DNA from: a virus
Taxonomy: Duplodnaviria; Caudoviricetes
Reading direction: 5' to 3' (one strand)
IMG/VR virus record: IMGVR_UViG_3300021255_000094
Location: 2,896 to 66,895 of that record
DNA: 64,000 nucleotides
Positions 7,721 through 33,453 of the stretch are shown piece by piece (positions within the stretch are counted from its first letter, which is position 1; each line of letters starts with the position of its first letter). A program made the translations under genes and the position numbers. Below the pieces are notes generated by a model. That model saw only the letters and a list, made by a program, of their open reading frames with translations, did no database searches and was not told the origin of the DNA.

Positions 7721-8360
7721 GTGCTGGTATTTAGATACTTGCGAAGATGATTGCAATAAGTGTGCAGTATTCTTTCAGATGAAATATCAAATGGAGAATA
7801 GTGGTTTACCTAAAGCAAAGCAAAGCCCAATAACTTTATATCTTACTGATGATAACAGTGGAGATAAAAAAGCATTTTATAGATTAGCTGAGATTAGAAA
7901 AGATATAGTTGATTTTGTAGAGCAAGGCAAGAATCTGTATATATGCAGTTCGTGGACTGGTAATGGTAAAACAAGCTGGGCAATTAAAATGTTACATACA
8001 TACTTTCACCACACAGCAGTTGGAAACTATGATAATCTTAAAGGTATGTTTGTATCAACCACAGAGCTATTATTACAGCTAAAAGATTTTAATAACCCAT
8101 TGTCTAAAGCATACATTGAAAAATTAAAGAATGTAGACTTAGTAATATGGGACGATATAGCAGTTAGTGGTATGTCGCAGTATGATTTTACTCAATTATA
8201 TACTATAATAGATAAGCGAATACTTGCTGAAAAATCTAACATATTTACATCTAATCAGCCAACAGTAGAAGGATTTGCAGAAGTTATGGGCAACAGATTA
8301 GCAAGTAGAATCTATTATACAAGCGAGATTATAGAACTAAAGGGAAAGGATATGAGATAG
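7701..8360 (+). CDS. DnaC/IstB-like helicase loader ATPase
   Basis: GNGKT Walker A, LVIWDD Walker B, R-x-x-SR arginine finger; N-terminal Cys cluster. Confidence 0.85.
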   Translation: MEQRNSECWYLDTCEDDCNKCAVFFQMKYQMENSGLPKAKQSPITLYLTDDNSGDKKAFYRLAEIRKDIVDFVEQGKNLYICSSWTGNGKTSWAIKMLHTYFHHTAVGNYDNLKGMFVSTTELLLQLKDFNNPLSKAYIEKLKNVDLVIWDDIAVSGMSQYDFTQLYTIIDKRILAEKSNIFTSNQPTVEGFAEVMGNRLASRIYYTSEIIELKGKDMR

Positions 8361-16850: not shown

Positions 16851-16861
16851 GGAGATTGATA

Positions 16862-18412
16862 ATGGCACTATTTGAAATACCAACAAGAAATAATAGTCGA
16901 GAATCAGATAGTAAAATCATTAAGCAATCAAAGACAGTACACAAAGCTACCCCCTCTATAAAAGGGGGTAGTAGTTTACTAGAGAGAATATCCCAAGCGC
17001 AAGATTTAGTAAACCGAAAATTAAGTAAGTATAAAGATAAATATATCTTGATACAAAATGAGCAGATATTACATAATTATATAGATGAATGTATTAAGCA
17101 AGGAGTTATTAGTATAGATACAGAAACTACTGGACTTGACCCACTGTTAGATGATATAGCAGGAATATGTGTTTATACACCTAGTATGCCAGGAGCATAC
17201 ATACCTATCAATCACGTTAGCTATATAACAAATGAAAAGATTGCTAATCAATTAGATGTGGAATATATAAGAGCAGAGTTTGAACGTATTATTAAACCAC
17301 ATATAGATGTGATAATGTTTAATGCAAAGTTTGATATTAGAGTGTTGAGAAATAAAGTTGGTTTACATAATATTTACTGTACTTGGGATTGTTATTTAGC
17401 ACAGCGATTGCTTAATGAGAATGAACCTAGTAATGCTCTTAAAAAGTTGCATCAGAAATATGTGCTTAATGGTAAGGAAGATGCATTTACATTTGAAGAA
17501 CTATTCAAGGGAATACCATTTACAATGATACCTTTACAGACAGCAGTGCTATATGCAGGAAATGACCCAGTTATTACATATGAACTGTATGATTATCAAC
17601 GACAGTTTCTTAGGGAAGATTCTGATAGAGAAGATATGCGAAAATTGTATTGGGTATTGATGAATATAGAAATGCCTTGTGTTGATGCAGTATGTAATAT
17701 GGAAGATAATGGTGTACTCTTTGATATGCAGTATCAACAGATACTATCAGAGAAGTATAATAAGCTACTCACAGACAAGCTAGAAGCGTTTTATAAAGAG
17801 TTAAAGAAGTTTGATGATAAAATAGTCGAGTACAAAGCTAAAACGCAACATAACAAGCTAGATGAGCCTATAAATATAGCAAGCCCTACACAGCTAGCAA
17901 TATTGTTCTATGACATTATAGGTATAGAGGTTATAGATAAAAAGTCACCTAGAGGTACTGGAGTAGAAATATTAAAAAAGATGGATATGCCACTTGCAAA
18001 CACTATACTTGAATATAGAACGGTTGAAAAGCTAATCAGTACATATATTGATAAGTTACCTAATTGCGTAAACCCAAATGATGGAAGAATACATTGTAGC
18101 TTTAATCAATATGGTGCAGACACAGGAAGAATGTCAAGTAGTGACCCTAACTTACAGAATATACCATCACATAATAAAGACATACGAAAGATGTTTATAG
18201 CTTCTAATGAACCCCTTGATATTGTTGAAAGCAACAATAGTTTTACAGTAGATAGATGGATAGAAGTAAAAACATCTAATGGGTGGATTTATGCTGATAA
18301 AATAGAGGTTGGAGACAGCTTGGTTGTAGAAGAAAACGACACTCAATTAGAGATTATTGTTACCAAGATAGATAATCGTGTTGACAATAATCAGATAATA
18401 TTATATTATTAA
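16862..18412 (+). CDS. polA: Family A DNA polymerase N-terminal fragment (3'-5' exonuclease, thumb, start of palm) with Hint-like C-terminal tail
   Basis: SIDTETTGLD, FNAKFD, YAGND exonuclease motifs; GADTGRMSSSDPNLQNIP; stops before motif A. Confidence 0.9.
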   Translation: MALFEIPTRNNSRESDSKIIKQSKTVHKATPSIKGGSSLLERISQAQDLVNRKLSKYKDKYILIQNEQILHNYIDECIKQGVISIDTETTGLDPLLDDIAGICVYTPSMPGAYIPINHVSYITNEKIANQLDVEYIRAEFERIIKPHIDVIMFNAKFDIRVLRNKVGLHNIYCTWDCYLAQRLLNENEPSNALKKLHQKYVLNGKEDAFTFEELFKGIPFTMIPLQTAVLYAGNDPVITYELYDYQRQFLREDSDREDMRKLYWVLMNIEMPCVDAVCNMEDNGVLFDMQYQQILSEKYNKLLTDKLEAFYKELKKFDDKIVEYKAKTQHNKLDEPINIASPTQLAILFYDIIGIEVIDKKSPRGTGVEILKKMDMPLANTILEYRTVEKLISTYIDKLPNCVNPNDGRIHCSFNQYGADTGRMSSSDPNLQNIPSHNKDIRKMFIASNEPLDIVESNNSFTVDRWIEVKTSNGWIYADKIEVGDSLVVEENDTQLEIIVTKIDNRVDNNQIILYY

Positions 18413-18415
18413 GAT

Positions 18416-19123
18416 ATGATTATATATAAAGCAACAAACAAGATAAATGGTAAATGTTATATAGGGCAAACTCGACATTCTATTGAGTATCGTAAGCGCA
18501 GACATTTATCGTGTGCTAGGAAAGGAGTTAAAACTAATTTTTATAAAGCCATTCGTAAATATGGAGAAGATAATTTTGAATGGGAAATAATATGTAGCAC
18601 TAATGATAAACAGAAACTCAATGAACTAGAAACTTTCTATATAACAAAATATGACAGCATTAAAAATGGCTATAATATGATTGATGGCGGAGATAATAAT
18701 ATTATGGACATTGAGAGTGTTAAAACTAAACACGATAAAGTTATGCGTAGTTCCGAAGTGCGTAAAAAGATTTCAAATACAATGAAAAATAAGATTGCTA
18801 ATGGAGAATTTTTTACACCTGAACATAGAAAGAAGTTATCTGAAAAAGCAAAGGGTAATCATAATTTTGGCAGTGGTGATACACGCTCAATAGGATGTTA
18901 TTGTGTTCTTGAGGACGGCACAAAATATGAGTTTCATTCATATAGGGATGCTTGGAAGTGGTGGTTAACTATTGATAACCCATTTGATACAGATACAGAA
19001 TGTGTGTATCAGCGAAAAATAAAACAAAGTATAGAATGTGGATATTATACATATCATTATAATCGTAATAAAATTAAGTATGAATATCCAAAGTGGTTTA
19101 GAAAGGAGTGTGATGCTGAATGA
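18416..19123 (+). mobile_element. Free-standing GIY-YIG homing endonuclease gene between polymerase halves
   Basis: MIIYKATNKINGKCYIGQT, E..YI, GYN, NUMOD3-like TPEHRKKLSEKAKG. Confidence 0.9.
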
Positions 19124-20097
19124 AAAAGTTACTAGCTAGGAGAAACTATGTTCTTATGTCTAGTGACTATTCTTAGTCACAGCAAGAACCTAAATGTTTA
19201 GCGGCTTTGTGTAGAATGAATGGAGATTCACAGATGTATGATACATTTATGCAGGGTAAGGACTTGTATTCAGAGATAGCAAGTAAAGCATTTAATAAAC
19301 CTTATGAAGAGTGTCTTGAGTTTAATAAAGATGGAACTACTAATAAACAAGGTAAAGAACGTAGAACACAAGCTAAAAGTATTCTGTTAGGAGTGTTATA
19401 TGGCAGAGGTGTACCATCAATAGCAGAGCAGTTGAATTGTACAGTTGAAAAAGCACAAGCTATAAAAGACAGTGTATTCAGAGGTTTTCCAGCTATTAAG
19501 AAGTTTGAAAAAGATTCTTTAGCTATGGGCGAAGAGTTAGGTTATGTAACTACAATCTCAGGACGTAAGAGAAGATTACCAGCACTTCAATTAGATGAAT
19601 ATGAGTTTAAGTGGAAGAACGGTGTAGCTCCTGATAATGATTTATTAGACTTTGACTCAGATGCAGAGCAAGAGATTCCAGAGAGAACTATCAGAAAATA
19701 TCTTACAAAGTTACATAATTGTAGATTTAATGAGAAGCGCAAGATATTTGAGCAAGCGAATGAAGAGGGTATATGGATAGTAGATAATGGAGCAAAGATA
19801 GCAGAAGCAGTTAGACAGACTGTAAATGCACGTATTCAAGGAAGTGCGGCAGACCTAACAAAGCTTGCTATGATAGAGCTTAATAATAATCAGAAGCTAA
19901 AAGACTTAGGATTCAGACTACTTATACCAGTACACGATGAGATAATAGCAGAGTGTCCAGAAGAGAATGTCAAAGAATGTTCTAAATTACTAGCAGATAC
20001 AATGTCAAAAGCGGCGGAAAGGATACTAGAAATGCCTATTAAGTGTGATGTGACCATTACAAAAGAATGGTATGGAGAGGAGATAGTATATGAATAA
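19120..20097 (+). CDS. polA: Family A DNA polymerase C-terminal fragment; in-frame TAG at 19174-19176 inside motif A
   Basis: AAGGAG RBS and ATGA overlap at 19120; MKKLLARRNYVLMSSDYS*SQQEPK; motif B RTQAKSILLGVLYG; IQGSAADLTK; motif C VHDE. Confidence 0.85.
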
Positions 20098-33269: not shown

Positions 33270-33285
33270 GTTTATGTGCAGATAT

Positions 33286-33357
33286 AGGGGTATCGCCAAG
33301 CGGTAAGGCATATGATTTTGGCTCATATATTCGTAGGTTCGAATCCTACTACCCCCG
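33286..33357 (+). tRNA. tRNA-Gln (anticodon UUG), CCA not encoded
   Basis: GGGGTA/TACCCC acceptor stem, GCCAAGCGGTAAGGC D arm, TATGA-TTTTGGC-TCATA anticodon arm, GGTTCGAATCC T arm. Confidence 0.92.
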
Positions 33358-33453
33358 AATGGATGGCAGACGTGTCATTGGGTGTGAAAAGGACGGGAGA
33401 TTCACAGTTGTTAGGTTGAAAAGGCGGGCGACCTGACGTTATAGGAGAATAAA

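Follow-up and report, generated by a model that had tools for sequence, protein, structure and literature searches.

Homing endonucleases spare the host gene either by means of a self-splicing intron or intein, or, in the MobA and MobE type, by extensions that serve the reassembly of the split protein. C- and N-terminal extensions come with both the MobA and the MobE cassette, and with MobA a bypass gap as well. In the gene 39/mobA/gene 60 region of phage T4, an essential enzyme of replication is interrupted beside its catalytic site by a free-standing homing endonuclease (Bonocora et al. 2011 PNAS 108:16351; Manning and Atkins, bioRxiv 10.1101/2022.08.31.505936). The first open reading frame (ORF) there carries a C-terminal extension and the second an N-terminal one, and some tens of nucleotides after its start the second ORF contains an untranslated gap that begins with a stop codon. 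There the nuclease is progressively lost while the extensions, and often the gap, are retained. In phage Aeh1 the pieces of nrdA surround a free-standing nuclease gene, mobE, and the non-covalent enzyme is active only with the extensions that the element supplies (Friedrich et al. 2007 PNAS 104:6176; Crona et al. 2011 NAR 39:1381).

In the fractured genes described by Dassa et al. 2009 (PMC2677866), split inteins are combined with free-standing GIY-YIG or Vsr-like endonucleases. The order is host N part, intein N piece, nuclease gene, intein C piece and host C part, the hosts are replication enzymes of phage type, and the inteins are complete and splice. In the T4-like Aeromonas phage 25, a GIY-YIG gene likewise separates two genes that together encode the gp43 polymerase (Petrov et al. 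2006, as cited in PMC2677866). It belongs to family B and is split at another site, and the account of it given there describes neither a Hint-like extension nor a stop gap. Laboratory 'stop hops' (Weiss et al. 1987; reviewed in PMC5009743) use a matched codon, a stop and a second matched codon, so that 9 nt yield one residue. These constructs are synthetic and inefficient, and according to the 2016 review no natural, utilised in-frame stop hop was known (PMC5009743).

The locus studied here lies in a window of 64,000 nucleotides, the whole stretch of DNA that was analysed, from a rumen phage of the Caudoviricetes (IMG/VR record IMGVR_UViG_3300021255_000094, positions 2,896 to 66,895). Coordinates refer to this window, and all features are on the plus strand. 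The N-half of a DNA polymerase A (PolA) gene is an ORF of 518 aa at 16856..18412, comprising the 3'-5' exonuclease domain, the polymerase domain up to the helix preceding motif A, and an extension. It matches the Pfam profiles DNA_pol_A_exo1 and DNA_pol_A (profile positions 9-150). The latter match ends at residue 452, at the segment IRKMFIA, and 69 further codons follow this segment, to Y518, before the stop codon. After the stop (TAA, 18410-18412) and a single GAT, a free-standing GIY-YIG homing endonuclease gene follows with the frame unchanged (18416..19123, 235 aa). It matches Pfam GIY-YIG (PF01541) with 31.6 bits at a cut-off of 22.6, and PHROG 314, 'homing endonuclease', with an E-value of 5e-33. 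The C-half starts at ATG 19120, which overlaps the nuclease stop codon (ATGA) and is preceded by a ribosome-binding site, GGAG, at 19105..19108. It begins with a basic leader, MKKLLARRN (19120..19146, net charge +4), and the PolA profile is picked up again at position 146. With host halves on either side of a free-standing homing endonuclease gene, the locus has the layout that Dassa et al. 2009 call a fractured gene. The original prediction had described a PolA gene fractured around such a nuclease, and the Pfam and PHROG matches and the ORF positions agree with it: the extended N-half, the adjoining nuclease gene and the C-half with its own ribosome-binding site were all found where it had placed them, as was the lack of splicing residues discussed below.

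The nearest relative, locus L003, has an unsplit PolA gene that is 98% identical over N-half residues 1-450, and identity in the C-half is again 98% once its first 30 residues are passed. Homology with L003 breaks off after 18201, and codons 450-518 (18203..18409) are therefore an extension, a tail of 69 aa with a net charge of -9. According to blastn and a mismatch map against L003, 945 nt (18202..19146), which also encode the leader, stand in place of 10 nt of the unsplit allele. As a gene 98% identical is unsplit, these 945 nt are a mobile cassette, and it is missing from about 60 related loci. The cassette is followed by a co-conversion tract (19147..19264) with 17 mismatches to L003 in 118 nt, after which there are none for 128 nt. 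Between near-identical genomes there is thus a presence/absence polymorphism of the homing type at one site, L003 being empty, together with a co-conversion tract. A megablast search for near-identical phage records returned none. The closest named phages, phiCTP1 and Dp-1, have an unsplit PolA with 47-51% identity.

Comparison of divergent carriers shows the nuclease to be conserved best, with 79% identity to the copy in locus L068 and only 52-66% for the polymerase parts (52% in the N core). A sigma-70-like promoter, TTGACA-17 nt-TATTAT, is located at 18381..18409 and matches at 11 of 12 positions. It ends 6 nt upstream of the nuclease ATG and overlaps the last codons of the tail. A TTGAC-type -35 box and an A/T-rich -10-like hexamer precede the nuclease gene in all eleven cassettes looked at. 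Since the last 10 tail codons coincide with the promoter here, the conservation of the tail end may partly reflect the promoter.

The tail is a real, selected protein domain, judging from its coding sequence and its predicted structure. A run of 69 stop-free codons has a chance of about 0.004 at 34% GC (approximately 7.7% stops per codon per frame), the pN/pS of the tail is 0.14-0.29 in five close pairs and 0.40 against L068, and the tail was found in every split locus for which upstream sequence was available. In the AlphaFold2 model, a low-confidence linker of about 10 residues precedes a predicted seven-stranded beta domain, half of a Hint fold (about 18230-18409), with 10-residue block means of pLDDT between 84 and 90 across residues 21-76. 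The single tail sequence matched nothing in Pfam (E up to 1) or in PHROGs, and the link to Hint domains surfaced only with a profile (A2) built from an alignment of 14 tails. Among solved structures, the best match of this profile is a bacterial intein-like (BIL) domain, 2lwy, with an E-value of 1.2e-3. The tail profile was also compared with 1.84 billion proteins, and eight of the nine long, mostly multi-stretch matches that were checked in Pfam are PT-HINT, Intein_splicing or Hint proteins, with E-values from 9e-7 to 1.3e-4. For six of these eight, the matched stretch falls within the best PT-HINT hit.

Comparison of folds gives the same picture. With the tail model, Foldseek ranks mostly inteins at the top, with probabilities of 0.85-0.96, and the top seven chains in VIA-align are all inteins (Z 5.1-6.0), the first six with an rmsd of 1.7-2.0 A over 51-54 residues. 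One of the best-ranking folds is the gp41-1 intein, a member of the Dassa et al. 2009 set. These structural scores are modest, with Z under 8 and Foldseek E above 0.1. From the profile and the model, the tail is a Hint-related domain that corresponds to one pseudo-symmetric half of the fold only. The Hint-likeness proposed in the original prediction is upheld by the matches to PT-HINT and intein proteins, to 2lwy and to intein folds. We also considered a complete intein at this PolA site. Among the 150 listed matches of the tail profile, proteins of PolA length carry the tail at their extreme C-terminus, and the internal matches checked in Pfam are Hint-domain proteins, bar one S-layer protein, with no PolA intein among them.

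A Hint-related tail in this position raises the question of whether tail and leader are an unusual but active split intein, which would ligate the two parts of the polymerase by protein trans-splicing in the way described for fractured genes (Dassa et al. 2009). The order of host half, intein-like piece, free-standing nuclease and second half is that of these genes, and an acidic N piece with a basic C piece is reminiscent of natural split inteins (PMC2677866). However, a complete splicing domain has blocks A, B, F and G and roughly 130 residues, and here there are about 55 folded residues and a leader of nine. The inteins of fractured genes reportedly have about 90-105 plus 35-40 residues. 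No Cys or Ser nucleophile is conserved among the tails at intein position 1: the column aligned to it contains T, I, E, V or M, and the column read as 'Ser1' in the original prediction contains S, Q, I, M or T. None of the tail domains contains a His, and therefore there is no block B and no TxxH. The leader, at nine residues no more than a putative C-intein remnant, has N, S or Q as its last residue, and in all loci it is followed by a Tyr at +1, where an intein would have Cys, Ser or Thr. With a variable position 1, no His and a Tyr at +1 the tail cannot splice, and since half a Hint domain and a leader without catalytic residues are all that is present, the halves here cannot be ligated. 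The splicing residues are absent, as the original prediction had anticipated (no Cys1, no His in the tail, no His-Asn followed by a nucleophile), and the two halves do not seem to carry functional split-intein parts. We regard an active split intein as extremely unlikely.

GIY-YIG genes are frequent in group I introns of phage polymerase genes, and a group I (or II) intron at 18202-19146 that carries the nuclease ORF would result in a clean exon joint, the tail being read-through into intron RNA. A group I intron with an HNH nuclease is described in a phage polymerase gene (PMC3428280). Several observations argue against such an intron. In the region 17900-19500 no Rfam intron family was found at E-values up to 10. 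The tail is under purifying selection as a protein and folds confidently, and the C-half has its own ribosome-binding site and an ATG overlapping the nuclease stop. The spacer differs widely between loci, from less than 100 nt to 2.3 kb, and contains unrelated genes, yet tail and leader are retained throughout. Finally, the TAG gap described below would survive splicing. RNA splicing at the locus is unlikely, and we attach next to no probability to the intron.

The two-half polymerase of the original prediction stands as far as the fractured gene is concerned, but a gap with a stop codon in the C-half had been omitted from it. Relative to unsplit genes there are six extra nucleotides at the site TCT-TAG-TCA (19171..19179), which lies inside motif A and within a hairpin (19163-19180); TCT would be the take-off and TCA the landing Ser codon. 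The TAG at 19174-19176 ends the reading frame of the C-half after 18 codons. The remaining PolA C-half (19177..20097) has 306 codons and a stop, with the first in-frame start codon not before codon 10. With such a gap inside motif A, the two halves by themselves give no active enzyme.

In all nine split loci that were found by protein similarity and carry the nuclease or a remnant of it, TCT-TAG follows D-Y/F; in the loci found by pattern, TCT-TAG was imposed by the search. L047, which is split without nuclease or remnant, has no gap. Combining similarity and pattern scans, the gaps are 6, 7, 8, 10, 11, 15 or 16 nt long, some with further stops, and every gap ends in a UCN codon immediately before CAR-CAR-GAR. 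Downstream of the gap, every complete locus has an open frame of about 300 codons. Gaps that measure 6-16 nt and fall in all three frames point to a ribosomal hop, and we infer from the sequences, and from the likeness to T4 gene 39/mobA/gene 60, that the C-half needs such a hop over TAG. By the same analogy, the gap may protect the carrier from its own nuclease. Read-through cannot be the general answer, as gaps of 7, 8, 10, 11 and 16 nt shift the frame. An alternative code or a suppressor was considered and rejected: the ORFs have the statistics expected under the standard code, ordinary genes terminate at TAG, and the only tRNA within the window is Gln(UUG). The 16-nt variants have an in-frame ATG two codons upstream of the landing codon, and because of it a restart instead of a hop is possible in these variants.

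An in-frame stop that separates the catalytic Asp from the remainder of motif A is also what a decaying gene could look like. Insertion and stop would then have inactivated the polymerase, and the phage would depend on a different one. The lack of a canonical C-half start in L047 fits this explanation. Both halves are open in more than 20 divergent loci, however, and past the gap about 300 codons are open despite no nearby start codon. In addition, the matched UCN landing codon is kept in all gap variants, and the pN/pS of the tail is well below 1. We consider a decaying gene very unlikely. L047 has ATA/ATT where other loci have ATG, and this one locus may be decaying, as its C-half is without a canonical start.

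In at least four lineages (L013, L014, L105, L119) the nuclease is lost and tail, leader and gap are kept. Extra genes are located between the halves in L038, L041 and L086, and in L047 a helicase and a methyltransferase separate the halves, with tail and leader kept and nuclease and gap absent. Both cut ends have extensions that are conserved also after loss of the nuclease, as in the MobA/MobE type. Among the loci, none without a nuclease has both halves in one frame. Since split, tail and leader outlast the nuclease and persist with unrelated intervening genes, a two-chain polymerase is most likely. The best reading of the sequences is a non-covalent enzyme, in which the two chains would form a heterodimer.

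The charges of tail (-3 to -16) and leader (+2 to +5) are opposite in all 14 loci, and this, together with their conservation, suggests that they may act as a clasp. The leader was also compared with the polymerase itself, as a possible duplicated segment; MKKLLA roughly aligns with the RKMFIA-type segment here, and the other leaders do not. A two-chain polymerase does not require a clasp if the halves meet via the native palm interface, and the tail could then have another task, such as stabilising the shortened N-half, controlling the nuclease or protecting against it, or binding another replisome protein, or it could be cassette sequence that is simply tolerated. WIN-type tails finish in a clamp-binding-like motif (Q, three hydrophobic residues, Y-Y), and the promoter overlaps the end of the tail, both of which fit such roles. 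On the other hand, the tail is kept after nuclease loss and therefore does not serve the nuclease, DNA binding is unlikely for an acidic domain, and the opposite charges of tail and leader fit direct contact. We judge a tail that is not a clasp to be rather unlikely.

Taken together, we propose that a GIY-YIG-driven cassette was inserted in the loop just before motif A and split the family A DNA polymerase gene. The cassette carries (i) the acidic 69-residue extension of the N-half, whose folded part is predicted to be half a Hint (intein) domain without splicing residues, (ii) the nuclease gene under a promoter of its own, (iii) for the C-half, a ribosome-binding site, a start codon (ATG) and the basic leader of nine residues, and (iv) six extra bases 25 nt further on, which put the stop inside motif A. 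The polymerase would consist of a chain of 518 aa and a second one, 324 aa long once the hop has taken place, in non-covalent association. The half-Hint tail and the basic leader would most likely promote this association, like the extensions added by MobE in the split NrdA of Aeh1. In the proposed hop, peptidyl-tRNA-Ser would leave UCU with UAG in the A site and re-pair at the next UCN, restoring the canonical motif. The gap would guard the carrier genome against its own nuclease, by analogy with T4 mobA/gene 60. As a whole, this explanation (a cassette-split PolA, a two-chain enzyme, association by half-Hint and leader, a hop-completed C-half and immunity by the gap) is in our view probable.

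The locus shares with T4 MobA the split of an essential replication enzyme by a free-standing homing endonuclease beside the catalytic site, the extensions on both ORFs, the gap that begins with a stop codon some tens of nucleotides after the start of the second ORF, and the progressive loss of the nuclease with retention of the extensions and often of the gap. The host gene is PolA here and topoisomerase II in T4, the nuclease is GIY-YIG here and HNH there, and the gap is 6-16 nt from UCU to UCN here and 50 nt from GGA to GGA there. The C-terminal extension is recognisably Hint-derived here, and the cassettes have no sequence homology, i.e. they are analogues, not homologues. With Aeh1 the locus shares gene pieces around a free-standing nuclease, and extensions required for an active enzyme would by analogy have their counterpart here; enzyme and nuclease family differ, and the Aeh1 extensions have no reported Hint relationship, nor does its second ORF contain a gap. 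Order and type of host are those of Dassa et al. 2009, but instead of complete, splicing inteins there is half a Hint domain and a leader of nine residues. The polymerase around a GIY-YIG gene is also found in Aeromonas phage 25, and TCT-TAG-TCA has the layout of the laboratory stop hops but is natural.

The locus suggests a bridge between the intron/intein route and the MobA/MobE extension route. A Hint domain that lacks half its length and all its chemistry is still under selection where an essential polymerase has been cut. Should this domain act as a docking module, it would be a natural intein turned into a pure protein-protein connector, and it could serve as a compact heterodimerisation tag in protein engineering. 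The cassette might even be a self-contained gene-splitting kit, with a nuclease, a domesticated half-intein docking with a basic leader, and a stop-hop gap of 6-16 nt for self-immunity; we hold this to be possible, at slightly less than an even chance. If true, intein-type fractured genes and MobA/MobE-type split genes would join one evolutionary series, and the gap would be the first natural, utilised short stop hop. The many natural variants of the putative, very short hop in this same cassette would allow the rules of take-off and landing to be tested directly. Annotation at present labels such polymerases as truncated genes or pseudogenes.

The phage contig is 66.9 kb long with 34% GC, and in the 64 kb covered by the window nearly all long ORFs are on the + strand and the genetic code is standard. 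The N-half of the family-A DNA polymerase (PolA) is an ORF of 518 aa (16856..18412, + strand), with the 3'-5' exonuclease domain and, as far as Pfam profile position 150, the polymerase domain. Its polymerase homology ends at IRKMFIA, and 69 further codons, the tail, follow in the ORF, confirming the original prediction of a stop after this motif with about 68 extra residues. After the TAA and three bases comes, as had been described, a GIY-YIG ORF (18416..19123, + strand) that shares its frame with the N-half. The C-half has the predicted ribosome-binding site of its own, a GGAG upstream of the ATG at 19120 (+ strand), which overlaps the nuclease stop. It begins with a 9-residue leader, after which the polymerase resumes at Pfam profile position 146. 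These elements of the earlier description are accurate, however it omitted an in-frame TAG (19174-19176, + strand) 18 codons into the C-half, between D-Y-S and Q-Q-E of motif A. Past this stop the C-half frame is open for 306 more codons. The window contains one tRNA gene, a Gln tRNA with anticodon UUG (33285-33358), and no suppressor tRNA.

Searching viral contigs yielded 80 related loci, mostly from rumen-type metagenomes as judged from the sample numbers. The polymerase gene is unsplit in about 60 loci, and also in the named relatives phiCTP1 and Dp-1. In the closest locus, L003, the gene is uninterrupted and the identity is 98% over the N-terminal 450 residues. Compared with L003, 10 nt are replaced by 945 nt (18202-19146), and six additional bases are found at the motif A site. 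On the 3' side of the insertion, 118 nt contain 17 mismatches and the following 128 nt none, a pattern typical of co-conversion. The nuclease is 79% identical to that of a distant carrier, L068, compared with 52% for the N core and 66% for the C-half, which argues that the cassette moves horizontally. These comparisons mark 18202-19146 as a mobile cassette.

A sigma-70-like promoter, with a TTGAC-type -35 box and an A/T-rich -10-like hexamer, lies directly 5' of the GIY-YIG gene in 11 of 11 cassettes compared (this phage, L011, L012, L017, L038, L041, L068, L083, L086, L089 and L090). Here it overlaps the last tail codons (18381-18409, + strand) and ends 6 nt before the nuclease ATG, so the nuclease mRNA of this phage may be leaderless; in other loci AGGAGG is found 3' of the promoter. 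Four loci (L037, L042, L061, L080) have further GIY-YIG-like ORFs elsewhere within or beside the polymerase gene, and in L061 about 970 nt are additionally inserted between residues 431 and 432. The polymerase gene seems to be a preferred target of several mobile elements.

The motif A stop is part of the same cassette. In unsplit genes motif A reads D-Y/F-S-Q-Q-E-P. TCT-TAG follows D-Y/F in all nine split loci with a nuclease or its remnant that were found by protein similarity; in the pattern-found loci TCT-TAG was set by the search pattern. The gap is absent from L047, which is split without nuclease or remnant. When loci found by scanning viral and metagenome contigs for the pattern are included, the inserted lengths are 6, 7, 8, 10, 11, 15 or 16 nt, and the gap always ends with a UCN codon immediately 5' of CAR-CAR-GAR. 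The gaps fall in all three frames, which neither read-through nor a single frameshift could accommodate. A second stop is present in one 15-nt gap that is in frame. In every complete locus the frame 3' of the gap is open for about 300 codons, with no nearby start codon. Peptidyl-tRNA-Ser leaving UCU and re-pairing at the next UCN would give a canonical motif A in every case; according to a 2016 recoding review (PMC5009743), no natural hop over an in-frame stop was known. In the 16-nt gap variants (L038:4164-4197; L114; L125) a stop in the landing frame is followed by an ATG, one codon and the landing Ser codon. This ATG is in frame, so ribosomes could terminate and restart here instead of hopping.

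The tail is a real, Hint-related domain. An alignment of 14 tails shows clearly conserved hydrophobic and Gly-Asp positions, and five close pairs have a tail pN/pS of 0.14-0.29. In the AlphaFold2 model a low-confidence linker precedes a seven-strand beta domain, with pLDDT 84-90 for residues 21-76 (10-residue block means). A single tail sequence had no match in Pfam. The 14-tail profile has as top match in PDB the bacterial intein-like domain 2lwy (E 1.2e-3), aligning to both of its pseudo-symmetric halves. Against 1.84 billion proteins the profile identifies 179 at E <= 0.001, among the matches listed mostly N-halves of polymerases that have the tail as their extreme C-terminus. PT-HINT, Intein_splicing or Hint domains are present in eight of nine checked long, mostly multi-stretch matches, and in six of these eight the matched stretch is inside the best PT-HINT hit. 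Foldseek with the tail model gives mostly inteins at the top (gp41-1, BIL2, RecA, RadA, DnaB), at E of only 0.14-0.4. With an aligner independent of Foldseek the first seven ranks are all inteins (Z 5.1-6.0), the first six at rmsd 1.7-2.0 A over 51-54 residues. The tail is equivalent to half a Hint domain: it can be aligned with the first 53 residues of the Npu DnaE N-intein or, alternatively, with the Pho PolII mini-intein over its second half. The scores are individually modest, but three independent routes agree on the fold, and the proposed Hint remnant is borne out.

Many database proteins of 65-90 aa from the tail-profile search (P0004-P0066) start at the Met of I-R-K-M-F and contain only the tail; probably they stem from faulty gene calling on short contigs. 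WIN-type tails end with Q, three hydrophobic residues and Y-Y (Q-L-V-F-Y-Y in L083; 18392-18409 in the window), an end that in sequence resembles a C-terminal beta-clamp-binding motif. The phage has its own DnaN-type clamp gene. In the model these residues are the final strand of the tail domain, and the motif is absent from other tail types.

An intein class for the tail is ruled out, as it is too short and all catalytic residues are missing. The column structurally aligned to intein residue 1 contains T, I, E, V or M, the column earlier taken as Ser1 contains S, Q, I, M or T, and no tail domain has a His. The final leader residue is N, S or Q and is followed by Tyr in every locus. Judged from these residues, the half-Hint tail and leader are predicted to be unable to splice, in agreement with the original prediction. 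RNA splicing of the split gene is unlikely: Rfam gave no match to RNA intron families even at E <= 10, the region of a would-be intron core codes for the selected tail, and the distance between the halves varies from less than 100 nt to 2.3 kb across loci.

The proposed two-chain polymerase holds up in the locus comparison, as the split persists both after nuclease loss and with other genes between the halves. The nuclease gene is lost in L013, L014, L105 and L119 (L014 keeps just the first nine and the last few of its codons), and each of the four still has the tail, the gap and a leader with its own ribosome-binding site. Between the halves, L038 (2127-3316) has a 326-aa PP-loop-like ORF and a 69-aa ORF, L041 (5577-6242) and L086 (660-1332) an ORF of about 221 aa, and L047 (5557-7817) a helicase and a DNA methyltransferase. 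The L047 C-half has ATA/ATT behind a good AGGAGG (7835-7850) where all other loci have ATG or GTG, which makes it weaker evidence for two chains; it is either a non-canonical start or a decaying copy. In 14 of 14 loci the tails are acidic (net charge -3 to -16) and the leaders basic (+2 to +5), a polarity discussed for natural split inteins (PMC2677866). The retention of tail and leader and their opposite charges fit the original idea that the Hint remnant may be a non-covalent dimerisation clasp, and the extensions reported for MobE-split NrdA and MobA-split topoisomerase match this pattern.

T4 gene 39/mobA/gene 60 shares its layout with this locus, and the gap there guards against the cassette's own nuclease (Bonocora et al. 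2011; Manning and Atkins 2022). The gap and nuclease of the T4 system are not homologous to those found here. No family-A polymerase that is split and carries a Hint-derived extension turned up in a literature search that excluded most subscription journals. The MobA and MobE cassettes are functional counterparts of this cassette, and tail ancestry ties it to the fractured genes with split inteins (Dassa et al., PMC2677866); it belongs to neither type.
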